Notes: generated by a model not told the origin, from the sequence alone. DNA of 64,000 bases from Stegostoma tigrinum (GCF_030684315.1 NC_081397.1:11990421-12054420); one strand, 5' to 3'. Counted from the first letter of the stretch, positions 10,216 to 64,000 are shown. Made by a program: numbers and translations.

Positions 10216-10858
10216 GTATGTTACCGCTGTCAGAATGGATCATTTCCACAGGCGTAGAGCAGTTTGAGTCAGAGACACGGTGATCTCAATTTCCAGAGAA
10301 ATGCATTCAAGCCAACAGTCAAATACAAGCAACAAAATACAAGTAGTTTGTTTTCTCTCTTCCCAATGCACCCCTCCTCGGTTGCTATAATTTTCTTCAT
10401 TCATAGCCTACTGATATTTACAACATTTTTGAAAAGTCACAGACTGAATTTTCATCTGAGACGGACACCGAGGAACTGCACTAAATCTGCATTTAGTAAG
10501 CATGTTTTTCAAGTTACTGTCAAGGTGAAGAAATAGTTCATGCAGTTACATAGTTACTTCGCACAGTGTGAGTACAGATATGGAAGAAAACATTCACGTT
10601 ATCAGTAACTGAGCAGGACGGTGTCTATGTTTTGACAAATTGATGTCCCATGCATAGAGAGAAGAATTAAATAATGTGACTTCCAAATGTGTGACATAAA
10701 ATGGTTACTGAGAGCACATAACATAAACTGCACATGCGCGCGCGCACACACGCACCGACTTACTGAGTGATTTACAATGTATTCCAAATACATACATGCA
10801 CCGTTCCAACACACATTCCTCAACATCTAATAGCCATGAAGACCATGTACACTTCAAG

Positions 10859-12555
10859 CATTTAACTGATCAATTCAACATCTAGCTAATAAGCATTCAG
10901 ATATTTAGATTATCACCAGGAATTCTAACAGAACTGTGGGTCTGATTGCACTCTTGCCCTGAGCTGCACTACATTTGATCAATTTTAAAAACTTCAACTC
11001 TAATTGAGTGATGCACAGAAAGTAACCAACACCCGTACAGCTCCATGACTGGAACTACCTAATGCAAGCTTGTCTGTGCATATGTGTTTAGTTACTGATC
11101 CATGCATGTCAGTTGCTACCTGTTGAATGTGTGTGTGTAGTTATCAATGTGTCCCTCTAAATCTTTGGCAAATTACTTCTGTATTACACAGCAGAGACTG
11201 ACAGGGAAACATTGGTCTAGACCAATCAATCATTGTAAAAATGGTACAGAACAGAAGGAGGTCATTTGGTGCATCATGTCCATGCTGACCCAAACACCCC
11301 CAGATGGCCATCACAATCACATCTTCCTGCACACATCCCATAGCCCTGCAGGTTTCATTCTATTATCCTTCAGAACTTGGTCCATATGTGACAGACCATC
11401 AAAAGAGGAGAGCCAAATTATTTTGTGAAGAATTTGGAAACTAAAATTTAACACTGAGGACCATTGGGTGAGTACCCAGGTTTTAGATAATGAGATTTTT
11501 TTTTGAAAAGAACCGTTGTTATGGAACAAGACGGACAGCCACACTCCATTGATCCTTCAATCTTCCTGCATTCGAAAACTGAGCATTTTAAATGTTTCAT
11601 GTGAAGTGGAGAGCCAGTTATGATTTAAATTATTATTTTTTTAAATAAATGTCCATGATTATAAAATCTTCTAGCGTACAACAGAACAAAAAAATTCTAG
11701 TTCCACAAGATGAAGAATTTGAGAACAATCCTGCGATAAGGGTGGAGATGGTAGTTCCCCTGCCACCGTGATACATTTATGGAAATTGAATGCTGGCTGA
11801 ATGGATGTAATTATTGGCTTGTTGCTTCTATCATTGCTGGCTTGGAGAGACAGGACTGTTTGCAGTGCTGTTGTTGTCTATGACTAGATATGTGTGAGTG
11901 ATAATAATTTTGTATAGATCATGTATCTGTTGCTGGAGTTTAAATGGAACTCCATAGCTGTTAGTCCTTGGATCACATCTTTAGTTATGATGTCTGTATT
12001 TTGAACTAGTTCTGAGTCAGTCAGTACCTGTACCTGTCAGTCCATCCACGTGGAAACAAAGCAAGTAATAATACAGGTCCCGTCACACTTCCTCAGAACA
12101 GAGGTTCAACTTCAGAACATTCATTTCCATACTCATATGCTGATAGACTTGCTGAGATTTTGCAGCAATTTCTACTTTTGTTGCTGATTTCCAGCATCTG
12201 CAGTTCCTTGGTTTTTCTCATTTGTCAGGCATGTGTGTTTGAAGTTGTCATGATTTGATAAATGTATGCACACATTATAAAAATGTAGAGATTGAGATGA
12301 ATGAAATGACATGAATGGATCAGTAACTAAACTCATATGCACAGACAAGCTTGCATTAGGTAGTTCCAGTCATGGAGCTGTACGGGGGTTGGTTACTTTC
12401 TGTGCATCACTCAGAGTTGAATTTTTCAAAATTGATCAAATGTAGTGCAGCTCAGGGCAAGAGTGCAATCAGGCCCACAGTTCTGTTCGAATTCCTGGTG
12501 ATAATTTAAATATCTGAATGTTTATTAGCGAAATGTTGAATTGATCAGTTAAATG
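10859..12555. repeat. About 250-bp inverted repeat (arms 10859-11111 and 12307-12555)
   Basis: Direct reverse-complement match, roughly 90% or better by eye. Confidence 0.92.
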
Positions 12556-12612
12556 TTTTCAAACCCATCTGATGACGGTTTACAGGAGCTATCTGTTTTT
12601 TCCTTCCTGCAG

Positions 12613-23539: not shown

Positions 23540-24019
23540 TCACTCCAATCGCTGCCGAGTGAGAGCCGAGCTGCCTCGCCTTCCATTTTTATACAGCCCG
23601 CCCCGACCTGACTGAGAAACAGCTGACAGGGAGTGAGAGGATACCCGGGCAGAAAACTGAGTGACACACAGAGAAATGTCCAGCTCCGCCTACAGCTGAC
23701 TGCCGCCCCCAACTGGATCTGGAACTAAACCTTTTCTCCACAAGCGCAGTGAACACAAGGCCCGGCAGAAAACCTGCAGACTCAAACTTCTATTCAAAGA
23801 TAATAAAACCTGGATATTTTAAAAGCAAGATGACAAAGTATGAAGCTGGATGAACACAGCAGGCCAAGCAGCATCTCAGGAGCACAAAAGCTGATATCAC
23901 TGATACAATTTTAAAAGCAGAGATAATGGGAACTGCAGATGCTGGAGAATTCCAAGATAGTAAAATGTGAGGCTGGATGAACACAGCAGGCCAAGCAGCA
24001 TCTCAGGAGCACAAAAGCT

Positions 24020-24047
24020 GACGTTTCGGGCCTGGACCCTTCATCAG
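24020..24047 (-). ncRNA. Minimal hammerhead ribozyme motif
   Basis: CTGATGA-AGGGTCCAGGCCC-GAAACGTC on minus. Confidence 0.75.
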
Positions 24048-25323
24048 AGAGGGGGATGGGGAGAGGGAACTGGAATAAATAGGGAGAGAGGGGGAGGCGG
24101 GCCGAAGATGGAGAGTAAAGAAGATAGGTGGAGAGAGTATAGGTGGGGAGGTAGGAAGGGGATAGGTCAGTCCAGGGAAGACGGACAGGTCAAGGAGGTG
24201 GGATGAGGTGAGTAGGTAGATGGGGGTGCGGATTGGGGTGGGAGGAAGGGATGGGTGAGAGGGAGAACCGGTTAGGGAGGCAGAGGCAGGTTGGACTGGT
24301 TTTGGGATGCAGTGGGTGGGGGGGAAGAGATGGTCTGGTTGTGTGGTGCAGTGGGGGGAGGGGATGAACTGGGCTGGTTTTGGTATGCAGTAGGGGAAGG
24401 GGAGATTTTGAAACTGGTGAAGTCCACATTGATACCATATGGCTGCAGGGTTCCCAAGCGGAATATGAGTTGCTGTTCCTGCAACCTTCGGGTGGCATCA
24501 TTGTGGCAGTGCAGGAGGCCCATGATGGACATGTCATCTAAAGAATGGGAGGGGGAGTGGAAATGGTTTGCGACTGGGAGGTGCAGTTGTTTGTTGCAAA
24601 CTGAGCGGAGGTGTTCTGCAAGGCGGTCTCCAAGCCTCCGCTTGGTTTCCCCAATGTAGAGGAAGCCGCACCGGGTACAGTGGATGCAATATACCACATT
24701 GGCAGATGTGCAGGTGAACCTCTGCTTAATGTGAAATGTCATCTTGGGGCCTGGGATAGGGGTGAGGGAGGAGGTGTGGGCTACACTTGCGTCCCAGTCA
24801 CAAACCATTTCCACTCCCCCTCCCATTCTTTAGATGACATGTCTATCATGGGCCTCCTGCACTGCCACAATGATGCCACCCGAAGGTTGCAGGAACAGCA
24901 ACTCATATTCCACCTGGGAACCCTGCAGCCTAATGGGATCAATGTGGACTTCACCAGTTTCAAAATCTCCCCTTCCCCAACTACATCCCTAAACCAGCCC
25001 AGTTCGTCCCCTCCCCCCACTGCACCACACAACCAGCCCAGCTCTTCCCCCCAACCCACTGCATCCCAAAACCAGTCCAACCTGTCTCTGCCTCCCTAAC
25101 CGGTTCTTCCTCTCACCCATCCCTTCCTCCCACCCCAAGCCGCACCCCCATCTACCTACTAACCTCATCCCACCTCCTTGACCTGTCCGTCTTCCCTGGA
25201 CTGACCTATCCCCTCCGTACTTCCCCACCTATACTCTCTCCACCGATCTTCTTTACTCTCCATCTTCAGCCCGCCTCCCCCTCTCTCCCTATTTATTCCA
25301 GAACCCTCTCCCCATCCCCCTCT

Positions 25324-25351
25324 CTGATGAAGGGTCTAGGCCCGAAACGTC
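25324..25351 (+). ncRNA. Minimal hammerhead ribozyme motif
   Basis: CTGATGA-AGGGTCTAGGCCC-GAAACGTC. Confidence 0.75.
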
Positions 25352-25599
25352 AGCTTTTGTGCTCCTGAGATGCTGCTTGGCCTGCTGTGTTCATCCAGCC
25401 TCACATTTTATTATCTTGGAATTCTCCAGCATCTGCAGTTCCCATTATCTCCAATACCAGAGAGATTCGGGATTGTAGTGGGGGTTGTAGTGATAGACCT
25501 TGCTGTTAGGGTGGATGGAGTCTATATCAAGTCTGATCAGTGTGTGTGAGGGTAAAACTGTGTCACAGAGTCGTGCAGTAAGGCATCCTTTGGCTTGGG

Positions 25600-29869: not shown

Positions 29870-31530
29870 GCACATTGATACACAACAGTAGAAACTGACA
29901 GATACAGATTGATACCTACACTGACTCATTCACATTCCAGAAACACACAAAAGAAAATTGATGATGAATCACATATTCACATTCAAATAACAGGAACGGA
30001 CATGGACTGATAATTTGACTTGGCCATTCACACAGCAGAAACTGACTGGAGAGATGGGGAAATGCAGCCTCACATTTATGTTGCAGATACTGACAGCAAG
30101 AATAATGTTGTTAGACACAAATTCACAGAATAAAAACTGACTGGTACACATTGATAAATGCATTTGCCTATTCAAAGCCAGAAACTCATAGGTGGAAATT
30201 GATGGGTAAAATCACACATTCCCAAAGCAGAATGATTGTTTGTAATAGTCTTGGTTTCAAATAACTGACGGGGACAGATTGGTAACTTCACTCACCGATG
30301 CACAGAGCAGAAACTGACAGGCATAGAGCAATAACTACACTCATCTGCTGCCGTAGGTACTGATTGACAATGACATGTACATATTCACACAGAAGAAACT
30401 GACAGGTATTCACTGATAACTAAACTCATATATTGACATAACAGAAACTGCAAGTGATAGACTGAGAATTACACAAACATATTCACAAAGCAGAGGCTGA
30501 AAGTGTACAGATTGATAACTACACAAACATATTCACACAGCAGTCTGAGAGGAATAGACTGATTGTTAAACTCACATAGACAGAGCAGAAACTGACAGGC
30601 AGAAATCAGCAGTGAAACTCTCATTCTTTTAGCTGAAACTGACAGGTAGAGATTAATAACTAAATCCTCACATTCACAAACCAGAAACTGACAGGTGCAG
30701 AATAATAATGACATTGACATATGCACATAGCAGAAACTGACATGGACAGAATAAAAATATCATGCCCAGGCTCATTTGGCATCATCTGAACAGTACGTTT
30801 GAATAACTAAATTAATTTTCACAGAACAGAGTTTGCCAATTATGTATTGATATCTATATTCCAAGATTGACAGAGCAGAAACTGACAGGCATAAATTGAT
30901 AACTGAAATCATATTCAAAGAGCAGAACCTGATTGGTACAGATCCAGAACTGCACTCACATATTAACATATCACTTGCTATCAGTTAGTTCCAGCTAACA
31001 TCATTCACATATTGACAAAGAATTAACTGACAGATAAAAATTGACAACTATATTTATATATTCCCAGACCTGAAACCGGCAGGTACAGAGTGGTAAATAC
31101 ACTCATGCATTCACATATCAGACTGACAGGGACAAATTTTAAAACTACATTTCACAGAGCACAAGGACAAGAACAGATTGATCACAGCACTCATGCATTC
31201 ACATATCAGGACCTAACAGGTAAGGATTGATAATTATACTCATGTTTTGAAGTAGCAGATGCTTACAGCTAGAGATTAATTACTGCACTCTCATATGCAC
31301 AGTGCACAAACTGACAGATAACTGATAACTGCACTCAAACATTCACATGGCAGAAACTAATATAAACAGATTGATAATAAGCTCATACTTGTATCGCAGA
31401 AATAGGCAGTGACTAACTACTTCTGTGTGAATATGTAAACATATTTATCAGTCAGTCTCTGTCAGTTTCTACAATGTGGATATATCAGTTTAGTTATCAG
31501 TCTATAGTTGTCAGTTTCTGTGATGTGAAT
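29870..31530 (+). repeat. Largest ~49-bp degenerate minisatellite array; last ~110 bp inverted
   Basis: AGAAACTGACAGG...GATTGATAACT recurs at 49-50 nt spacing (e.g. ATTCACA at 30481 and 30531). Confidence 0.85.
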
Positions 31531-35559: not shown

Positions 35560-37000
35560 GGGAACTGAGATACAGACTGGCAGCACGAGGGAAAACTCAC
35601 TCACACACAGCCAGTGGATGCTAAAAGGAAAAGAATGAAGTACGGCCTCTCAGTAATTTCCAGATATGAACTGACTCTCAAAATCTCTGATTACACCTGA
35701 GGATATTGGACTATTACAGTGCCCAGTAGTGACAGATAGATTCTACTGCACACTCAACCTCATGCACAATGTAAAAACAAACTGAGACTGAAATGCAATG
35801 CAGTTGAGTGCAATTGAAAAGAGTTTGACAGAGTTTACTACTCCGACACAAACCACAACTGAACATACGAGAATGAGATCCATGTACTCTCCCTGAGACT
35901 GTGGGAAACACATCAAAACTGCCACGATCGTTATGAAAAGCCAGATACCCACAGAACTTATGTCATATTGGCCTTTACAAATAGACGCTGACAATGAGTA
36001 GATGAAGTTCACATTCCTAACAATTACTGCGGAACTGCTGCATAAAAAATTCCCAGTACAGAGACAGTGGGCTGAATGGTCTGCTCCTATGCTGTACCAT
36101 ATCTGTGATTCTGATTTTGGTGAGAAACAAACAGTTTAATCAGTGGTACCACAGATCTCAGGCTGTCTGACCAAATAGGAAATATGTGACCATTTGTCAG
36201 AATGGTTCTCAGAATAAAGCAGTTCCCCTCCTGTTATCACCCCATGTCCTGAACTTCCTCACCCCCCCTCACCTACCACACGGATTGACACTCAACTCAT
36301 AAATCACACAATGCAGAAGAGATTAAGAGCCAGCCTCAACACCCTAACAATAACTATCACAGAGTGATTTGTACAGTCACAGAGAATAATACTGGCCTTC
36401 AGAGACTTAGCCATTTTGATACATGAGGAGAAACTGACACGTACAGATTGATAACTACACCCACTTGTTCGTATTGCAGAAACACACAAATGATGACAAA
36501 ACATTGACTACAATGTAAAGGTGTGACTGTAGTTATCAGTCTCTCTTGGTTTCTGCTAATGTCAGTCATGCATTCGCATTGCAGGAACTGTCAGGGAGAG
36601 ATGAATAACTTCACCCTCATTCTCAAAGCTAAAACGGACATACACAATGATAACTACACTCCCAGTTTCACAGAGCAGAAACTGACAAGTATAGTCTGTT
36701 AACTAGACTCTCCTATTTACAGAGCAGAATCTCACAGGTACATGTTGGGAACAGCACCCACACATTCACCAAGCAGGAACTGACAGGTGTACTTCGATAA
36801 GTACATTTACACACTGACAAGGCAGAAACGGAGAGGCATAGACTGGGAACTCATATTCACACAACAGAAACTGACAGATACAGATTAATGTTGTCACTCT
36901 CAATTCTCAGAGCAAAAACTAACAGATACAGGCTGGTAAATATAGTCATACATTTACATATGAGAAACTGACAAGTATATGTAGATAAATATATTGATTA
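35560..37000 (+). repeat. ~49-bp minisatellite arrays within a duplicated unit (paralog of 29380-31400)
   Basis: Same consensus; 36050-36480 aligns with 29375-29920. Confidence 0.75.
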
Positions 37001-40667: not shown

Positions 40668-40829
40668 GTGTTTTTGCCGTGTAGGGCTTGCTTAGCTCAG
40701 TTGAGTGTCTGGTCGTGCTGAAAGCGTGTGGTTCAGTTTTTGCACTGGTTGAGTTTGCTGGGAATGATCGTCGCCCTTTGCCTTAGTTGTGGTGACCCTC
40801 AGGTTAAACAGTAAAACACTTGTTGCTGT

Positions 40830-41437
40830 TGTGTCCCTCTCTCCGTCCCTCTCTCTGTCCCTCTCTCTGTCCCTCTCTCTGTCCCTCTCTCTGTCCCTCT
40901 TTCTCTGTCCCTCTTTCTCTGTCCCTCTTTCTCTGTCCCTCTTTCTCTGTCCCTCTCTCTCTGTCCCTCTTTCTCTGTCCCTCTTTCTCTGTCCCTCTCT
41001 CTGTCCCTCTCTCTCTGTCCCTCTCTCTCTGTCCCTCTCTCTCTGTCCCTCTCTCTCTGTCCCTCTTTCTCTGTCCCTCTCTCTGTCCCTCTTTCTCTGT
41101 CCCTCTCTCTCTGTCCCTCTTTCTCTGTCCCTCTTTCTCTGTCCCTCTTTCTCTGTCCCTCTTTCTCTGTCCCTCTTTCTCTGTCCCTCTCTCTGTCCCT
41201 CTCTCTCTGTCCCTCTCTCTCTGTCCCTCTCTCTCTGTCCCTCTCTCTCTGTCCCTCTCTCTCTGTCCCTCTTTCTCTGTCCCTCTCTCTGTCCCTCTCT
41301 CTCTGTCCCTCTCTCTCTGTCCCTCTTTCTCTGTCCCTCTTTCTCTGTCCCTCTTTCTCTGTCCCTCTCTCTGTCCCTCTCTCTGTCCCTCTTTCTCTGT
41401 CCCTCTCTCTCTCCCTCTCCCTGTCTCTCTCTCTCTG
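40830..41437. repeat. 10-12 bp pyrimidine-rich tandem repeat (CTCTCTGTCC / CTCTTTCTCTGTCC)n
   Basis: Direct; lies in the intron between the two paralog-B exons. Confidence 0.97.
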
Positions 41438-41535
41438 CAAGGAGACAACGGTGACTCTACATGAACCACCTGCTAAAAACATAACTTTGCTGATTAAAAA
41501 TTAACTGCCAGCTTTTTCACTACAAAATAACTTAC

Positions 41536-51509: not shown

Positions 51510-52350
51510 CAATCACACACTCTCTCTCTCACAGACTCACACACACACACGCTCATGCATGTAGATTCACACACATAGTCAGACTCTCACACACACTCAC
51601 ACCAGCCTTCCCCTCACTCTATGCTCCACATCCTGTTTCCGCTCAGTCTCACCCCAACTCCATCCTCCTTGACTAACCCCCACCCCCACAATTCAGTCCC
51701 TTTTCTCGCTATTCTCCCTCTCACGCACCGCACACGCACAAAGACACGCACACACTGACATGGTCACATATTCACACACAGTCTGACAGACACATACACA
51801 CTGGAACAATTTCACACACACGTCCTTCACAGGTGCGTGTGCACACACACGGTCTGACACACAGTCACACCAGTTTGCATTCACACAAACACATGTTTGC
51901 TCAAACAAATTCATTCACAAAATTACATTGAATATCACACACCCACACACACTCAGAACTGTCATAATCTCTCTCACATTCCCTTACACATTCACATGCA
52001 ATCACAGTTTATGCTCAGACTCTTGTACAAACTCACATTATCTCACACATAATTTCAAACAAACTCACACTCACCCACATACAGCCTCTTAAACTCACAG
52101 AAAAACACATTCACAACACACTCTTGCTCTCTCTCGCACACACACACTCTCACACACTGTCACACACATTCACGCACAGCCACACAAAACATCCTACGCG
52201 CACATTTAATCTCACAAAACATCTCAGACGGTCGTTGACATAAACTTTCCTCAAACATTTTCTCTCACACATACTCCTTCCCTTACCCTCTACCCCTCCC
52301 TATCACGATATCTCACCCTCCATCCCGCACCCCCCCACCTCCCTCCCACC
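51510..52350. repeat. Degenerate CA-rich low-complexity tract
   Basis: Direct. Confidence 0.85.
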
Positions 52351-52749
52351 CACACATGAGCGACGGATGGAAGGGGCGATGCTGGTGACCCAGGGGAGAC
52401 TGTGGCTGACGTGTTGGCTCACTGCACCTTGCATCACCTTCCCGTCCCTGAGAGTAATCCCCAAGTTCGGTCTCTGATACCCGCCTCACATTGGATCACC
52501 GGGGGTTCCACCAACGCACCTTGATTTTAAAAAAGAAATCCACCAATTTGTTGTGTGTTACAATTTTATTCATCTCCAAAGGCAGCATTGTTGTGTACAA
52601 AAGCAAATATCATCAAGAAATTACATTTACAATAACACAGCGACAGATTAAACCCATCCCAATGTACACCATCCATGAACAATACTTTCCATTGCTTCAT
52701 AAACACTGGGACCATTGTGTTTTCATTTAGTTTTCCATCTCAACACAGG

Positions 52750-53540
52750 GTTCGGAGGGAGGGGGAGCTGTGAAGGAGGATGCAGAGATGCTTCCATGCC
52801 ATTGGGTCAAATTGAGTGAGTGGGCAAATGCACGGCTGATGCAGTTTGATGTGGATTGATGTGAGGCTACCACTTTGGGAGAAATAAGAAAACAGGAATG
52901 CAGATTATTATCGAAATGGTGATGGATCGGGAAAGCAGCATGGAGGACAGGAGTTGGAACATCATGTTGTGGCTGTACAAGGCATTGATAAGGATATTCT
53001 TGTTGCATTGTGTACAGTTCTGGTCATGTTGCTACAGGAAGGATGTTATTCAATTGGAAAGGGTGAAAAAAATGAACATAACCATGTTGTCAGGAATGGA
53101 GAGTTTGGGCTATAAGGATAGGCTGTTTTTTTTTTCCAGAGCATCGGAGGCTGAGGGGTGACCCTTTGAAGGTTTTAAAAATCATGAGGGACATAGATAA
53201 GGTGAAAGCCAAGGTCTTTAACCCCAGGGTTGGAGAGTCCAAAAGTGGAGGGCATAGGTTTAAGGTGAGAAGGGAAAGGTTTAGAAGGGGCCTGAGGGGC
53301 AAATCTTTCGCACAGACAGTGGTGGGTATATGGAATGAGCTGTCAGGGGAAGTGGCGGAGGTGGGTAAAATTATAAATATTTGAAAGAAATTTTGGCAGA
53401 TACATGGATAGGAAAGGTTGGAAGGGATATGGTTCAAACACAGGTAAACAGGGCTGGGTCAGTTTAGGAAACCAGGTTGGCATGGACGAGTTAGGCCGAA
53501 GAGTCACAGAGCACAGAAATAGCCCCGATGACTCTATGAT
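52750..53540 (+). mobile_element. CR1 LINE 3' fragment
   Basis: LYKALIR...CVQFWS; FAQTVVGIWNEL. Confidence 0.88.
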
Positions 53541-53929
53541 GAGGGGCACAAATGCTGTCTTTACCAGCAATGCCCCACATCCTTCGCCTGAACGAGGGGT
53601 CATCGTGATTAAAAAACAGCAATAAGCCAGTCACCATCCTTACTGGCTCGAATGTGAACAATTCATCAGCACAGTCCTGCTGTTCCATTCAAAGGTACCT
53701 GGTACCTATTGACCAGACCCTTTGGCCCTCGCGCTGGTGTTGTCCCTGTTGGTGTTCACCAGTTTGCAATCGGACTTGCGCTGCTCCTTTCTTGGTGGCC
53801 AGCAATTGTCAGATCCAGACGGCGTCGATGTTAAAATCTTAACGTCTTCTACCAAGCCTGTACTTACATCAACCCAAACCCTTTTGTGGTGCAGCGAGAG
53901 TGTCTGTATGTCGGGACTAAAAAGCCGAC

Positions 53930-54270
53930 ATTTTTTAATTCATGGGATGAGGGCATTGCTGGCCAGGCCAACATTTGTTGCCCATCCTTAGCTGTCCAGG
54001 GGGCTGTTAAAAATCAACCACTTTGCTGTGGGTCTGGAGTCACATGAAGGCCAGGCCAGGTAAGGATAGCAGTTTCCTTCCCTAAACCACGTGAGTGAAC
54101 CAGATGGGGTTTCCCAACAATTGATTCACAGTCACCATCAGACTCTCAATTACAGGATTTTGATGAATTTAAATTCCACAATCTGTGTTGCAGGATTTGA
54201 ACCCGGGTCCCCAGAACATCACTGGAACATCTGGATTAACAGTTCCGCAATAATCCCATGAGGCCATCGC
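53930..54270 (-). mobile_element. tRNA-derived SINE (second family; also about 60310-60610)
   Basis: B-box GGGTTCAAATCC on minus; shared body. Confidence 0.7.
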
Positions 54271-55063
54271 TTCCCCATTCAAAGGTCAAGCCTGCCACTC
54301 TGGAGGTGTGTGATCCCCCATCCTGACAATGTGGCGTTTCCAAAATACCTGCAGCGGAGAGAAACCCCCTACGTTCCCATTCCCACAATGGGTTTTGGAA
54401 TCTCAGAAAGCCGAGTTGAAGTGTCCAGCAGGGGTTTTGGTTCTTTGGGAGATCTAGTCTTTTCCGTATAGACTCTGTTTCATCCATGCCTTTTCTATCC
54501 AGTTTGTTCAGTGGCTTGCAGCTCAGTGTGTGTTCCTTCTGTGGGGCCAGAAGTTGCTCCTTCCAACCCCACACCCCAGGTCTCTTTCGCCCTGGAATGT
54601 AACCATTGAAATTGGCTGGTTTCTCCTTTTATATATCTCCCAACTGTCAGATCCTTCTGGCAATTCCTGTTCAAAGTTGGTCAGAATAGGGGAGATTCCT
54701 GTTCCATGCGCACAAGGTGGCAGATGATGTCTTCCTCCCCTTAAACATGGACCAACTGAAAAGCTCAATCCTCAGACATGTACATGAGAGGGAAGGAGAG
54801 GCAGGTATTAAATTTCCAAAGACCACAGCTGCTGAAATAGTTTTGAATTTACAAAACTAACGGCCTGCAATGTCCAGAACAGACCAACAGATGCAACAAC
54901 ATGAAATTAGCTTCACAATGAGTGGAGCAGAACAACGTGTGAAAGATGGTTTCCATCGCAAAGTTCACAAGTTTGCGATCTGTACACAGGAGTTACATTG
55001 TACCTCTTCACCAGACAGTCTATAAAAATCGAATGACCCGCCTCTCATCTGTCTTCTTCTTTC

Positions 55064-55183
55064 TTACTTGTGTGGAATATTCTCGTAAACATTTCCATCC
55101 GCTCTGTCTTCTTCCTCTGAGAGCTCGCTGAGGTTCAGTGTGGCGTATGTGATACAGGAATCATTGGGGTCAGGCTTGGCATC
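55064..55183 (-). CDS. Immunoreceptor tail, terminal exon (DAKPDPNDSCITYATLNLSELSEEEDRADGNVYENIPHK*)
   Basis: Pyrimidine-rich acceptor ...ttgcAG, phase 0; ITIM ITYATL and VYENI; TAA at 55064-55066. Confidence 0.85.
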   Translation of the reverse strand, partial: DAKPDPNDSCITYATLNLSELSEEEDRADGNVYENIPHK

Positions 55184-56249
55184 CTGCAATTGGAATGATA
55201 TTGGAATGGAATTGGAATTGAGTGGGAGCAGGAAGGTGAAGAGGTGAGAGAGGCCATTTGTAGTTAAAGGTAGGAGTGGATATCAGTGGGAAACAGGAAT
55301 CACCAACAGGAAGTTCAGTGCCACAAGTTAGGAATCTGGGTAGTGCAGTGGTAATTTCCCTACCTCTGAGCCAGGAGGCTGGGGGTCAAGTCCCACCTGT
55401 GCCTGAGGTGTGCCATACAGATGATAAAAGTGGGAAGGTGATGTCAGAGCTGTACAGGACTTTGGTGAGGCTGCAGCTGGAGCACTGTGTGCAGTTCCAG
55501 TCTCCGCACTATAGTAAGGATGTAATTGCACTGGAGGGGGTGCAGAGGGATATTCACCAAGATATTGCCTGGGTCAGAACATTTCACCAGTGAAGTGAGG
55601 CTGGACAGGCTCAGGTCGATGCTTGGAGCAGAAAAGGCTGAAAGGGCTTTTGATTTGTTTCCATTCACTCAGGGACATTGGCATTGCTGGCTGGGCCCAG
55701 CATTTGTTGCCCTGTCCCTAGCTGCCCTCTTGAGAAGGTGGTATTGAGCCGCCTTCTTGAGCTGCTCCAGCCCCATTTCCTGTAGGTTGACTCACAATGC
55801 GCTTCAGGAGGGAACTCCAGGATTTTCACCCAGTGACACTGAAAGAACAGCCAATGTATTTCCAAGTTGGGATGGTGAGCGGCTTGGAGGGGAACACACA
55901 AGGGGTGGTGTAGCCATGTATCCGCTGCCCGTGTCCTTCTGGATGGATGTGGCTGTGGGTTAGGAAGGTGCCGTCTGGGGATCTTTGGGAAATTTCTGTT
56001 GTGTATCTTGTAGATGGTACATACTGTAGCTACCAATTGGGTGTGAATGACAATGAACTGGCAACTATTTAATGTCACGGTCAGTGATGTTTTAATTCTG
56101 TACAGGAGTAACTGGAACACCAACACCAGTAATGCCACAAGTTTGAAACTCACTTATCCCCAGGCACTGGAAGTGGAATGTGAAACAGTGAGTGACCTAC
56201 TCCATTGATAAAGCATTGCTGGATATTTCCCACTGTGTTTAAAGGCAGG

Positions 56250-57020
56250 CACAAAGCTGGGGGTGAGGGGAGCTGTGAAGGAGGCTACAGGATGCTTCAG
56301 TGTGATTTGGACAATTCAGTAAGTGGCAGCTAATGTAGATCAGCATGAGGTTAACCAACTGAGAGCAAAAACAGGAAGGTGGTGATTATCCAAACAGTGA
56401 TGGAATGGGAGTGGGGGAGGTGCAATGAGACCTGCGTGTCCCCCGTACATCAATCGCTGAAAGTGAGTATCGCAGGGGCAGCGGGTGGTGAAGGAGGCAA
56501 ATGAGATGCCGGCCTTCAAGCGAGAGGGTTCGAGCCCAGGAGCCGGGATATCTTGCTGCAATTGTACAGGGTGAGACCAAACCCTGGAGTATTGTGTGTG
56601 CAGTTTGGGGTCTCCTTATCTGAGAAAGGATGTTCTGGCTATGGAGGGAGTGCAGTGAAGGTTTCACAGACTGATTCCTGGGATGGCAGGATGGACACAT
56701 GAAGAGAGACTGGATTGGCTAGGATTATATTCACTGCAGTTTAGGCGAATAAGGGAAGAATCTCATAGAAATCTGTAAAATTCTAACAGGACTAAATACG
56801 GTAAATACTGGAAGGATGTTCCTAGTGACTGGGAGGAAGTCAAGAACCAGGGGTCACAATATAAAGGAGATAGGTAAGGACTGAGATGAGGCGAAATGTC
56901 TTCACCAAGAGAGTGGGATCCTTGTGGGATTCTCTGCGACAGAACGCAGTCAGGACCAGAAAATTGAATGGGGAGAGCAGGCTGGAATGGCTGAATGGCC
57001 GACTCCAGCTCCTAATTTGT
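56250..57020 (+). mobile_element. CR1 LINE 3' fragment
   Basis: Decayed CR1 ORF2 C-terminus. Confidence 0.8.
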
Positions 57021-57149
57021 AAGGTATTTCCTGTGATCAGTCTGATATGAACCAATAGTTAATGTTTTACTGCGCGGATGTAAGTTATAAATTACCTGCA
57101 CTTCCTGTGGCAATAGCTGTGGTCTATTTAGGCTTAAAATGTAACATAC

Positions 57150-57184
57150 CTCCTTCCCATTCGAGGAGAAACCAACACTGCTGC
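57150..57184 (-). CDS. Immunoreceptor tail, 35-nt exon (GSSVGFSSNGKE), phase 1 to 0
   Basis: ctgttttattttcAG|...GAG|GTATGT; phases fit both neighbouring exons. Confidence 0.8.
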
Positions 57185-58397
57185 CTGAAAATAAAACAGA
57201 CTAAGTTGAGAAGGAACTCTTTGGAGACATTGACGATTCAATTTGGACGAATTGAAGGCTGATCAACATTAAAGATGTAACTGAATCTTTCAAAAGCATG
57301 GCTGTGTTTTTATATTGGTGCAATGCTTAATAAATTGTCCTCCTCAATCAGCCCAGAAACTTCAGAAGATTGCATTTAGAAACCTCGCTCTGGCTAAAGC
57401 CTACAATTTGCATTCAGGTCAATCACACAGCGGGTCAGTTTTTTAGGATGCAGGTCATTGCAACATCTTCAGCAGGCCGCCTTAATCTTATCAGCCTTTG
57501 CATGACTCGCCCTGTTGTTATACATGAAAACGACAAGAGTGAACCATACAGATAACGTCCATTTGGGTTTTAGAGTCACACAGCATGCAAACAGACCCTT
57601 TGGTCCATCGAGTCCATGCCAAGCATAATCCCAAATTAAAATGGTTCCATCTGCCTGCATCTGGCCCATATCCCTCCAAACCATTTCAATTAATGTACTT
57701 AAAGTGTCCACTGTCAACTTTAATTCCTTTAAAATAAATTCAACAGTTGCTCATAAATGTAGGAATTTAGGAAAGAACACTATTTCAACTCAAGAGTTTA
57801 ATACACTTAGTCTCGTGTCAAACCATCTGAAGAACTAAACTAGACTCACCATATTGTCGACAAACACAGCAAGTCAGGCAGAACTCGGAGAAAAGGAGCA
57901 GTCAACACCTCAGGCACAACCCCCACTTCCAGCCCCGAAGAAGGGCCATACCCGAAACGCTGACCGCTGCCTCCCTCCAGACGTTGCCTGGCTTGCTGTG
58001 TTCTTCCAGCCTCCTGGTTTGTCTATCTTGGATTCCAACATCTGCAGCTTTTTTGTCTCTATACTTATCATATTAGTTGCAATGAGAAACTCTAATTTGT
58101 TCAGTTTTGTTTCATTGAAAGTCACACACCTTAGGAAAGAAACATTGTTTATTGAGAACTTACTGTATTCCAGGATTGCTTTTTATGCAAAAATAGGAAT
58201 TTGAGAATGAATGGACATCCACTCTTGGATGTTATATCTCTGCCAATGTTGTCCCTTTCAGGACAGCTTCAATAACAATGTGAACATGGTCAAAGGTAGA
58301 AGATAGAGGGTGGTTTTAGCTGTTGCATGCTGATAGTTCCAGATAGCTCAGTTGGCTAGATGGCTGGTTTTTGTCATACATTGACAAATGTATGTCA

Positions 58398-59630
58398 ATG
58401 CCTTACAAACCTTATCGAGTTTTTTGAGGATGTGACTAGGAAGGTTGATGAGGGTCGAGCTGTGGATGTGGTGTATATGGACTTCAGTAAGGCATTTGAT
58501 AAGGTTCCCCATGGAAGGCTCATTCAGAAGGTCAGGAGGAATGGGATACAGGGGAACTTAGCTGCTTGGATACAGAATTGGCTGGCCAACAGAAGACAGC
58601 GAGTGGTAGTAGAAGGAAAAGATTCTGCCTGGAAGTCAGTGGTGAGTGGGGTTCCACAGGGCTCTGTCCTTGGGCCTCTACTGTTTGTAATTTTTATTAA
58701 TGACTTGGACGAGGGAATTGAAGGATGGGTCAGCAAGTTTGCAGACGACACAAAGGTCGGAGGTGTCGTTGACAGTGTAGAGGGCTGTTGTAGGCTGCAG
58801 CGGGACATTGACAGGATGCAGAGATGGGCTGAGAGGTGGCAGATGGAGTTCAACCTGGATAAATGCGAGGTGATGCATTTTGGAAGGTCGAATTTGAAAG
58901 CTGAGTACAGGATTAAGGATAGGATTCTTGGCAGCGTGGAGGAACAGAGGGATCTTGGTGTGCAGATACATAGATCCCTTAAAATGGCCACCCAAGTGGA
59001 CAGGGTTGTTAAGAAAGCATATGGTGTTTTGGCTTTCATTAACAGGGGGATTGAGTTTAAGAGTCGTGAGATCTTGTTGCAGCTCTATAAAACTTTGGTT
59101 AGACCGCACTTGGAATACTGCGTCCAGTTCTGGGCGCCCTATTATAGGAAAGATGTGGATGCTTTGGAGAGGGTTCAGAGGAGGTTTACCAGGATGCTGC
59201 CTGGACTGGAGGGCTTATCTTATGAAGAGAGGTTGACTGAGCTCGGTCTCTTTTCATTGGAGAAAAGGAGGAGGAGAGGGGACCTAATTGAGGTATACAA
59301 GATAATGAGAGGCATAGATAGAGTCGATAGCCAGAGACTATTTCCCAGGGCAGAAATGGCTAGCACGAGGGGTCATAGTTTTAAGCTGGTTGGTGGAAAG
59401 TATAGAGGGGATGTCAGAGGCAGGTTCTTTACGCAGAGAGTTGTGAGAGCATGGAATGCGTTGCCAGCAGCAGTTGTGGAAGCAAGGTCATTGGGGTCAT
59501 TTAAGAGACTGCTGGACATGCATATGGTCACAGAAATTTGAGGGTGCATCCATGAGGATCAATGGTCGGCACAACATTGTGGGCTGAAGGGCCTGTTCTG
59601 TGCTGTACTGTTCTATGTTCTATGTTCTAT
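58398..59630 (+). mobile_element. Young 5'-truncated CR1 LINE with open RT C-terminal frame and (TTCTATG)n tail
   Basis: YMDFSKAFDKVPH, GVPQGSVLGP, FADDTK; splits a tRNA-SINE between its A-box (58344-58355) and B-box (about 59657-59669). Confidence 0.97.
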
Positions 59631-61172
59631 TACATGCCAACCCTTGCCAACAGCATGGGTACAATTCCCACACCAGCTGAGGCTACCCTGAAGGATGCTC
59701 CTTCTGAACCTCTCCCCTCTCCTGAGGCGTGGTGATTCTCTAAAAGTTAAAACACCACCCAGTTCCCCTTCACTCTCTCTCTCCTATGAAAGAGCAGGCT
59801 GGTGGCTATGTAGAACATGACCATTTACTACTCATTCCCTTCAGACAAAGGCTAGAATGTGTTTGAATTCCATTGTACACAAGGCCAACTTCAGTTCAAA
59901 TGTCCCTTGTGGGTGTTGACAGGTATCCGTGTGATAATTGTAAGTTCATCTTTCTGAGCAACAATATGACATGCGGTGCTTTTATTTTCTCTGTCATCTC
60001 AAATCAGCAGGTGGTAGCATTTTGCATATCCGCCTTGCGTATTATATGAGGAAAATGGAACTTGCTTTCTCTCTATCCATAGATGCTGCCAGACCTGCTG
60101 AGCTCCTCCAGAAATATTTGAATTTATTTCTGATGTCCAGCATCCACAGTTCTTAGTTTTAAGAGAAAATGATCTACGTCTGCCTCAGTTAAGTGTAAAA
60201 TGCATGTCCCACTGCTTATGTCACGCACAGAATGTTTCTACATGTACTAAACAGTAATTGGGAAGCGACCGCCTTCATAACACAGTCACCAACACACACG
60301 GCGATATATTTTTATTTCATTCATTCACAAGGTGTCACTGGCCAGGCCAGCATTTATTGCCCACCCCTAACTGTCTCCATTGCTGTGGGTCTGGAGTCAC
60401 ATGTCGGCCTGACCAGGTAAGGATTGCAGCTTCCTTCCCTAAAAAGCATTGGTAAATTCATTGGGCTTTTCCACAACAATTTCATGGTCATTGAACTCTG
60501 AATTCCAGATATTTATTGAATTCAAATTCTGTGGGAGGATTCAAACCCAGGTCCCCAGGACATTAGCCAGGGTCTTTGGATTAACAGTGAAGTGATAATA
60601 TAACTAGACCATACCCCTTCTGTTTGGAATAACCAGATGCGGTGCTGGATGAACACAGCAGGCCAGGCAGGGTCAGAGGAGCAAGAAAGAGGACATTTCA
60701 GGTCTGGACTCTTCTTCATTTTCTGAAACATCGGCTTTCCTGCTCCTCTGATGCTGCCCTGGCCTGCTGTGTTCATCCAGCTCCACACCTTGTTATCTCA
60801 GACTCCAGCATTGGCAGTCCCTGTTAACCATTTCTCATTGCTCTGTGTGTCTGTTCTGAGTCACTGACAACATATAAATCATCTCCAAATCCTTGACCCT
60901 ATCTGCAGGGGAATAAAGGGTCATGGCAGATCAGATCGGGGCTTGTTTCTGATTGGCTGGTTCACTGTCCATTCATTCACAAATCTGGATGTTTCTTTTG
61001 GTAGACCCTCTGTTCCCTCACACTCCTGTCACTGCAAGCACTGTGGTATTTCTCTATTTGGAACTGGCCACACACCGGCGTTTCCACAGTAACTGGGATC
61101 ATGATATTGTTGGAGCTGCAACGATCCTCTGTCTCTCTCTTAAACATAGCATTAAACAAACAAAATATTTAC

Positions 61173-61232
61173 CAGACTCTGTTCTCTTTTTGGTGGTGAC
61201 CACTGAATAAACTATATCCGCAGCGGCGTTTT
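61173..61232 (-). CDS. Immunoreceptor tail, 60-nt symmetric exon (ENAAADIVYSVVTTKKRTES), phase 1 to 1
   Basis: tttatttctttgtAG|...TG|GTAAAT; ITIM IVYSVV. Confidence 0.85.
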
Positions 61233-62060
61233 CTACAAAGAAATAAAGTGCACATGAAAAACACACATCAATCAGAGAGCAGCGCTATAATGGGCTAAAT
61301 GACACATGCAACATCAATGCACAGATTCATGGATAGATAATAAATTTCAGAGCTGGATGGACAAATTTAATCGACTGATGGACGGATAGACAGATGGATG
61401 TTTTAAGATAGAGATAGATAGCTTCTTGATTAAAAAGGGGGATCAAGGGTGATGGGAGAAGGAAGGGGAATGAGATTGACAAACACATCAGCCTTGGTCA
61501 AGTGGCACAGCTGACCTGATGGAAAGAATGGCCTAATTCTGCTCCTATATGTTAGGTCCTGTAGCCTCATTTAGATAAGAAGACGCATAGATAAATAAAT
61601 ATGCATGCAGTTAATATCCTTGGAGATCATTCAGTTCACTACAACCACTATAAAGACTGCTGTACAGGAAGCTTGCTTCCCTTCATTATCACTTGCATGG
61701 AGCACTTGTGTCTCTGAGGAGCCAAGCCTTTGTACACAATCACTCATTGTAACCAACATCAGTTGGATTTCTCAATACCAGAGTACTGCGCCCTCAGTTT
61801 CCGACATTACTTCCGATCAAATAAGCATGTTGTGTCAGGCAAAACACCCTGAAGGAGGTCCAGTCACAAGGTATTAACAGCAACAGCCGTCTGTAAAAGA
61901 CACTGGTTAAAGATAGGGGCTTATAGCTCAGCAGTAGACCCATCAGCGCATCAGGTCTGTGCTGTTCAAAAGCAACCACCTCCCTATTCTCTAATCACAT
62001 TTTCCCAGCACCTGCCTCCATATCCTTGGCATCACAAGTGCACATCTCAATCTTTCTTCA

Positions 62061-63301
62061 ATAGAACATAGAACATAGAACATAGAACAGTACAGCACAG
62101 AACAGGCCCTTCAGCCCACAATGTTGTGCCGACCATTGATCCTCATGTATGCACCCTCAAATTTCTGTGACCATATACATGTCCAGCAGTCTCTTAAATG
62201 ACCCCAATGACCTTGCTTCCACAACTGCTGCTGGCAACGCATCCCATGCTCTCACAACTCTCTGCGTAAAGAACCTGCCTCTGACATCCCCTCTATACTT
62301 TCCACCAACCAGCTTAAAACTATGACCCCTCATGCTAGCCATTTCTGCCCTGGGAAATAGTCTCTGGCTATCAACTCTATGCCTCTCATTATCTTGTATA
62401 CCTCAATTCGGTCCCCTCTCCTCCTCCTTTTCTCCAACGAAAAGAGACCGAGCTCAGTCAACCTCTCTTCATAAGATAAGCCCTCCAGTCCAGGCAGCAT
62501 CCTGGTAAACCTCCTCTGAACCCTCTCCAAAGCATCCACATCTTTCCAAAAATAGGGCACCCAGAACTGGACGCAGTATTCCAAGTGCGGTCTAACCAAA
62601 GTTTTATAGAGCTGCAACAAGATCTCACGACTCTTAAACTCAATCCCCCTGTTAATGAAAGCCAAAACACCATATGCTTTCTTAACAACCCTGTCCACTT
62701 GGGTGGCCATTTTAAGGGATCTATGTATCTGCACACCAAGATCCCTCTGTTCCTCCACGCTGCCAAGAATCCTATCCTTAATCCTGTGCTCAGCTTTCAA
62801 ATTCGACCTTCCAAAATGCATCACCTCGCATTTATCCAGGTTGAACTCCATCTGCCACCTCTCAGCCCATCTCTGCATCCTGTCAATGTCCCGCTGCAGC
62901 CTACAACAGCCCTCTACACTGTCAACGACACCTCCGACCTTTGTGTCGTCTGCAAACTTGCTGACCCATCCTTCAATTCCCTCGTCCAAGTCATTAATAA
63001 AAATTACAAACAGTAGAGGCCCAAGGACAGAGCCCTGTGGAACTCCACTCACCACTGACTTCCAGGCAGAATATTTTCCTTCTACTACCACTCGCTGTCT
63101 TCTGTTGGCCAGCCAATTCTGTATCCAAGCAGCTAAGTTCCCCTGTATCCCATTCGTCCTGACCTTCTGAATGAGCCTACCATGGGGAACCTTATCAAAT
63201 GCCTTACTGAAGTCCATATACACCATATCCACAGCTCGACCCTCAACAACCTTTCTAGTCACATCCTCAAAAAACTCGTTAAGGTTTGTAAGGCATGACC
63301 T
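62061..63301 (-). mobile_element. Young 5'-truncated CR1 LINE, near-identical inverted partner of 58398-59630; 4-nt deletion frameshift near 62375
   Basis: Almost identical translation; (CATAGAA)n at 62061-62090; inserted in an older LINE fragment with an AT duplication. Confidence 0.97.
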
Positions 63302-63917
63302 ATGTGATGAGATATTCTGCCTCTCTCACCCTGACAGGCAGTGAGTTCCAAATTCCCCATCACTGACTGGATGAAAACATTTTCCTTCACATCCCCGTCT
63401 AAACCTCCTGCCCCTTACCTTCAATCCATGTCCCCAACCCCCCGGTCATTGAGTCCTTCAAGAAGGGGTTGGGTTTCTTCCTGTCTCCCGTATGTCTGCC
63501 CCTTATCAGTTTATACACCTCAAAGAAGGAGGAGTTGGCATCTTTGAGGGTGAAAGGGATTGAAGTGTCTGCAGGAGAAAGCTGGGAACTGGGGATTGAG
63601 TCGGATGGTCAGCTGTGACACTACCCAATGGGCCGGCCAATGGGCAGGCTGAATGGCCTCCGCATTTCTCTCAGAACCAGGGACTGAGTTAGATGGTTAG
63701 CTATAATCATAATGTCTGGCAGAACAGGATAGGTGGGCTGAATGGCCTAGTCCTGTTTCCTGGCTGCTGTCCTCCCCTTCAGCCTCCACAGCTCCAAGGA
63801 AAACCACCCCATTCTAGCCCAGCTGACAGCTTGGACGATTGACCAGAATTCCTACCAGGTTATGGTGCACCGTCACTGTGTGGGGCTCTATAACCACACC
63901 GATTCAATGGCACTCAC

Positions 63918-64000
63918 CAGCATTGTGTGCTGCTCCGATTACTGCATACTCCAGGTTGCTGGCTGCTGCCACTTCACCAGAAGCTTGGGATCTATTTCCA
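63918..64000 (-). CDS. Immunoreceptor tail exon, 5' end probably beyond the window (GNRSQASGEVAAASNLEYAVIGAAHNA), ends phase 1
   Basis: Donor CTG|GTGAGT; ITIM LEYAVI; in frame with 61232. Confidence 0.8.

Follow-up and report, generated by a model that had tools for sequence, protein, structure and literature searches.

The zebra shark (Stegostoma tigrinum) carries a gene for a putative inhibitory receptor in which one cytoplasmic exon lies between two inverted copies of a CR1-type long interspersed nuclear element (LINE). The gene lies within a 64,000-nucleotide stretch (GCF_030684315.1 NC_081397.1:11990421-12054420), called the window here and numbered from its first letter. In the window and adjacent DNA the host gene has five immunoglobulin (Ig) exons followed by one transmembrane exon and five exons for the tail; from the fifth Ig exon to the stop the frame stays open, with canonical splice ends. 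This is the layout of FCRL-like inhibitory receptors, with tandem Ig domains, one transmembrane segment and cytoplasmic tyrosine motifs, all in open frame. Immunoreceptor tyrosine-based inhibitory motifs (ITIMs) follow the consensus (I/V/L/S)xYxx(I/L/V), and the tail carries three ITIM-like motifs (LEYAVI, IVYSVV and ITYATL) together with a C-terminal VYENI. The RefSeq names of the family alternate between FCRL-like and PECAM-like. A 2014 survey did not find an FcRL homologue in sharks (PMC4016189). The features of the locus are listed below in the order in which they are transcribed.

63918-63991, minus strand: upstream cytoplasmic exon c2, 74 nt, with the LEYAVI motif; its base 63971 marks the four gene copies that bear copy B
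62063-63302, minus strand: copy B, a CR1-type LINE truncated at its 5' end and lying in the sense of the gene, in the intron before the ITIM exon; the older of the two, and shared with three sister gene copies
59631-62067, minus strand: predicted loop of 2437 nt between the arms, containing exon c3 and both of its splice sites
61173-61232, minus strand: cytoplasmic exon c3, 60 nt, phase 1-1, with the ITIM-like motif IVYSVV and AG/GT ends; the donor, TG/GTAAAT, lacks a G at +5
58398-59630, plus strand: copy A, a CR1-type LINE truncated at its 5' end and lying antisense to the gene, in the intron after the ITIM exon; of very recent origin, and found in this gene copy only
58693-58698, minus strand: AATAAA within antisense copy A, a possible cryptic polyadenylation signal
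58383-58397, plus strand: 15 extra bases at the 5' junction of copy A, with pieces reverse-complementary to the adjacent flank
57150-57184, minus strand: downstream cytoplasmic exon c4, 35 nt; its base 57152 marks the four B-bearing copies
55063-55183, minus strand: final coding exon c5, with the ITYATL motif, the C-terminal VYENI and the stop

Comparison of the window with itself by BLAST aligns 58398-59630 (plus) with 63296-62068 (minus) at 98.1% identity over 1233 columns. The two arms differ by 19 mismatches and one 4-nt gap, and they form the top-scoring repeat of the whole window. The order in the pre-mRNA is copy B (sense), the exon and copy A (antisense); 829 nt separate the near end of one arm from the acceptor, and 1542 nt that of the other arm from the donor. 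Among the 10 internal exons of the gene that were tested (the limits of the Ig exons being approximate), c3 is the only one spanned by an inverted repeat. Its removal takes out 20 residues and keeps the frame. An initial annotation of this DNA had placed inverted CR1 copies, about 98% identical, astride a 60-nt, phase 1-1 exon encoding IVYSVV at 61173-61232, and had set the neighboring exon limits at 63918 and 57184. This anatomy held throughout: each copy is 1.23 kb long, the exon has AG/GT ends, and joining the two outer limits preserves the frame. No older inverted repeat crosses the exon in two of the paralogs (L043 and L036), and an Rfam search of 55000-64000 returned no match.

Both arms are 3' ends of LINE ORF2, the open frame of copy A matching RVT_1 (Pfam, E 1.3e-22), and both end in a (TTCTATG)n tail with a 7-mer unit. 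The tail and the reverse transcriptase (RT) frame fit the CR1 label, which we take from the tail rather than from an RT tree or a repeat library. The tail of amniote CR1 is an 8-mer related to ATTCTRTG (PMC8665684). A hairpin stem is predicted in the 3' untranslated region upstream of the microsatellite; its stability (z = -0.21) is not above that of shuffled sequences.

The age and origin of the two copies can be read from the other members of the receptor family. The genome contains 24 matches to the exon region, the window included, of which 20 at >=92% lie on the same contig. Twenty of the 23 other matches were compared, and then two more, leaving out one 77% match near 12.46 Mb. Copy B is present in three of the 20 paralogs (L036-L038), copy A in none, and 17 have neither; the two additional loci have no young CR1 copy. 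The pair is found in one of the 21 copies of the gene that were compared. In two stretches outside CR1 the three B-bearing sisters show 99.85-100% identity to the window, and their exons c1-c5 are identical to its own. Relative to A, B has 17 substitutions common to all four B copies and two private to the window's B, and A carries none of these 19. The base of A at the 19 variant sites is found in all 29 dispersed copies at 18 sites and in 28 of 29 at the other; these copies were picked by identity to the first 303 nt of A. Over 1215 nt, A has no mismatch to 22 of the 29 and one mismatch to the other seven. Of 30 copies taken by position, 28 aligned over their whole length; these show 1 to 32 differences from A, and the 19 of B fall toward the older end of that range. 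Each insertion has its own junctions and a clean empty site, that of A in L036-L038 and that of B in 17 of the 20 paralogs. The site of A shows a duplication or microhomology of ~3 nt, and the 15-nt insert at its 5' junction was presumably templated locally.

On these comparisons the two copies are separate insertions of different age. The paralogs further indicate that B came first, a segment duplication followed and A came last, because the presence pattern, the substitutions and the empty sites all point to this order. An ancestral receptor gene already possessing the symmetric ITIM exon would have received B in its upstream intron, the B-bearing segment would have duplicated to four copies, and A would then have entered the downstream intron of one of them by target-primed reverse transcription. 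The symmetric exon is older than both insertions. Because A lacks all 19 B substitutions, it was neither copied from B nor involved in conversion with it, and no sequence exchange between the arms has been seen yet.

The 5' ends of A and B coincide within ~6 nt, as would be seen if the pair had arisen in one event, by inverted duplication or conversion, or as an assembly artefact. This is a coincidence of roughly 1% that independence does not fully explain, and it counts against two unrelated insertions. Of 85 dispersed copies that reach the start region of A, however, three stop no more than 10 nt, and 11 no more than 32 nt, from its start, and the zone around the 5' end of A is, judged by these end points, prone to truncation. 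Copy A also matches dispersed copies exactly while lacking every B substitution, and the junctions and empty sites of the two copies differ. The base tallies and distinct junctions rule out a single event or an artefact for practical purposes, and we give such an origin only the slightest chance. Two independent insertions, in L114 and in the L042 group, share a start point that lies 240 nt further in than that of A. Young CR1 copies may thus stop at recurrent 5' points, which would be truncation hot spots.

The subfamily is abundant. Exact 32-mer patterns match 14,272 times at its 3' end, a count that is a lower bound on copy number (at least 14,272), and 4,323 times at the 5' end of copy A. 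Pattern counts were used since a sample of 36 arbitrary 10-kb stretches, with three young copies of which two belonged to one tandem duplication, was too small to give CR1 density. A tandem duplication of 3.36 kb at 99.97% identity (L114, 1-6527) carries a young CR1 copy. With 200,000 internal exons, a number we assumed, and 2-kb flanks, ~8 exons flanked by inverted young copies of the subfamily are expected by chance, and ~0.7 with both arms >=1.23 kb; that a few such pairs are expected follows from the size of the subfamily. A new inverted copy in the downstream intron of any of the four B-bearing genes has a chance of ~2%. The pair is therefore uncommon at one locus yet expected somewhere in the genome.

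Once transcribed, the arms would likely pair in the pre-mRNA and loop out 2437 nt containing the exon and both of its splice sites. The predicted energy of A:B pairing is ~-2,428 kcal/mol over 1200 nt; the arms folded alone give -391 and -251. Such pairing would likely bring a modest rise in the in-frame skipping of c3, which was probably an alternative cassette in any case, so that some transcripts would lack 20 residues and one of the three ITIM-like motifs. The arms in intronic RNA would also be substrates for ADAR enzymes. We consider it an even bet that this full reading is correct, namely that two independent insertions probably form a duplex with modest extra skipping as a likely neutral accident limited to one gene copy. 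By analogy, the chances of some extra skipping in this copy are themselves nearly balanced.

The expectation of extra skipping is plausible because of results from human Alu reporters and from TBXT. In human cells, skipping is associated with inverted Alus that bracket an exon, with enrichment rising with proximity, and deletion of one Alu lowered skipping in seven of eight reporters, by ~1 to over 40% percent spliced in (PSI) (PMC13019944). In mouse Tbxt, an artificial stem with 297/297 identity gave more skipping than an Alu stem with 228/297 (PMC10901737).

Several points weigh against this expectation. Enrichment of inverted Alus declines with distance, and captured Alu duplexes were 78.9% within one intron and 7.9% across a single exon (PMC13019944). 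The loop of 2437 nt is longer than the TBXT loop of 1,448 bp. Four RNA contig sets were aligned to 52000-64000, of which run X5 behaved as spliced RNA, and X5 contains the inclusion joint 61232-63918 with CT..AC ends at a depth of 285, in contigs that cannot be assigned to one paralog. Neither a skip joint nor a back-splice joint is found among the 15 of 359 X5 joints listed, which speaks neither for nor against skipping in this copy. A search of sequencing runs with the sequence of the intronic loop listed no RNA run, a result that is equally neutral. Most RefSeq models listed for the cluster stop before the tail, and the RefSeq isoforms that suggest the exon can be skipped are predicted models. 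Mismatch counts in X5 (A>G 45, T>C 45, C>T 54, G>A 45) are pooled over many CR1 and short interspersed nuclear element (SINE) copies and so are uninformative on editing.

The main rival, which we consider possible, though the less probable of the two, is that the pair has no measurable effect on splicing, either since this gene copy is silent or weakly expressed or since commitment of the upstream intron precedes transcription of A, and that the exon is included as in the sisters. The only relevant junction among the joints listed is one of inclusion, 0.8 and 1.5 kb lie between the arms and the splice sites, and the effects in the reporters begin at ~1% PSI, with none in one of eight (PMC13019944). 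Against it, the stem is ~4 times as long as an Alu pair and 98% matched, greater stem identity led to more skipping in mouse Tbxt (PMC10901737), and the exon is short, has a donor without a G at +5 and is annotated as skippable in relatives. At the other extreme, the new LINE insertion would complete a near-perfect 1.2-kb stem and switch this receptor copy mainly to a two-ITIM isoform, an outcome that we regard as improbable. Were it true, the four near-identical copies would catch an exon loop-out driven by a LINE as it arises, in an animal other than a mammal. Should A still be segregating, an active CR1 family would make the dosage of inhibitory tails vary from shark to shark. On this view, recombination between the two arms might in addition invert the exon, which would fix the short form at the DNA level.

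The initial annotation had proposed that a duplex could loop the ITIM out in frame. Pairing and in-frame loss of the motif are mechanically plausible given the Alu precedent; no read attributable to this copy showed skipping, editing or back-splicing. The back-splicing it also envisaged is unlikely for a single 60-nt exon, since circles of under 80 nt are few (PMC5042038).

Relatives of the gene vary the exon without the pair. In a zebra shark family member on another contig, the homologous exon is present in three of four RefSeq models and skipped in one (P0049, compared with P0048). No inverted repeat links the introns flanking the exon in that paralog (1232 and 594 nt); older inverted matches of 68-80% occur across its wider c1-c5 region. 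A gene of the brownbanded bamboo shark has RefSeq models with two, one and no copies of the exon, and five other sets of RefSeq isoforms show no internal skip of the homologous exon. Within the cluster, c3 is also altered independently of CR1, by loss of the donor (GT>GG in L050 and L051), loss of the acceptor (AG>CG in L053 and L054) or replacement of the tyrosine (Tyr>His in L052). Because skipping is annotated without a pair, and splice sites and the tyrosine are damaged independently of CR1, the ITIM exon has probably long been a cassette that the gene can do without. The family can vary its number of ITIMs with no help from CR1. The initial annotation had counted equal skipping without the pair as evidence against its reading, and a pair-free paralog annotated as skipping the exon goes part of the way there.

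This variation bears on a strong form of the idea in the initial annotation, in which the pair would have been kept as a working device for tuning how strongly the receptor inhibits. In its favor, c3 is symmetric and holds an ITIM-like motif whose loss keeps the frame, and it alone of the 10 internal exons tested is spanned. However, A has accumulated no substitutions and so has had no time to show retention, three sisters identical in c1-c5 do without A, two of the three ITIM-like motifs persist after skipping, and the family varies the exon by annotated skipping, duplication and the lesions of L050-L054. Tuning would touch one of ~20 close copies and one of three motifs, and we judge it very unlikely.

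An effect could also come from A alone and not from pairing, through early polyadenylation at the antisense AATAAA (58698-58693 in the gene sense) or through lower output. A paralog model (P0024) ends in an alternative terminal exon within the intron that follows c3, corresponding to 60838-60903 of the window, which indicates that this intron is permissive. A single hexamer per 1.2 kb is ordinary, however, no strong cryptic acceptor was found in the arm of either A or B, and the argument draws on sequence and not on RNA; we consider such an effect quite unlikely, though slightly less so than tuning. An X5 contig over 60797-61161 has 11 differing letters and probably derives from another paralog.

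The preferred reading, a duplex with modest extra skipping, has close counterparts in primates. In the hominoid TBXT gene, AluY and AluSx1 loop out exon 6; as in the shark, an older and a newer inverted element lie in the introns flanking one exon, and a pre-mRNA stem is predicted to cause skipping in frame (PMC10901737). TBXT differs in being a single-copy gene with a hominoid-wide insertion, and its isoform is lost on deleting either Alu (PMC10901737), whereas the shark locus has 1.23-kb LINE arms at 98%, a longer loop, presence in one of 21 gene copies and an effect that is predicted. The layout matches loop-out of the TBXT or Alu type, a class defined by a skipped isoform dependent on the arms, which for the shark is a prediction by analogy. 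Gain of inverted Alu repeats around a conserved exon is likewise presented as a source of lineage-specific skipping in primates (PMC13019944). That study is centered on Alu in primates and mouse, with LINE1 making up 8.99% of predicted inverted pairs (PMC13019944), and the shark case concerns a CR1-type LINE in a multigene family. Inverted intronic Alus in RABL5 pair, are edited and shift a nearby exon; there both Alus share one intron and editing was demonstrated, while here pairing and editing are predicted (PMC2533698). Exonic circular RNAs also arise with complementary sequences in both flanking introns, but their median length is 547 nt, only a few measure less than 80 nt, and exons that circularize singly exceed the average exon length, in contrast to the 60 nt of c3 (PMC5042038).

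The arrangement itself is unsurprising, as the mechanism is known from primate Alu pairs. A search of the open literature, which is limited evidence, turned up no paper dealing with this locus or with exon skipping driven by CR1 in sharks. The value of the locus lies in a natural control set of one two-arm copy, three one-arm sisters (>=99.85% identical outside CR1) and 17 paralogs with neither arm. Among the 21 copies only that of the window combines G at extended position 65442 with T at 63971. Position 65442, in the transmembrane exon past the end of the window, lies 113 nt upstream of the skip junction and tells the window copy from its three sisters, which have C there. Such a read-assignable base makes the effect of a long LINE duplex on splicing testable in a cartilaginous fish from standard immune-tissue RNA-seq.

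The contig bears at least 20 close receptor copies (92-100%) between 5.5 and 15.2 Mb, in both orientations and with ITIM-like tails. As far as sequence can tell, the cluster is a recent expansion of putative inhibitory receptors in the shark. Two further independent young CR1 insertions lie downstream of c4 in other paralog groups, one in L042, L046 and L047 and one in L053 and L054.

The receptor gene adjoins a histone gene cluster at 600-23600 of the window, with frames that we take to be H1, H2B, H2A, H3 and H4-like. Two other inverted pairs lie in the window. One consists of 259-nt arms at 93% (10856-11114 and 12304-12558). The other has 660-nt arms at 96% with a spacer of 212 nt (23920-24579 and 24792-25451), and contains a frame that presumably resembles a Penelope-type GIY-YIG endonuclease, for which Pfam gave no hit. 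A 14-nt tandem array occupies 40700-41450, and a degenerate repeat with a spacing of ~49 nt occurs at 29900-31300 and 36400-37000.

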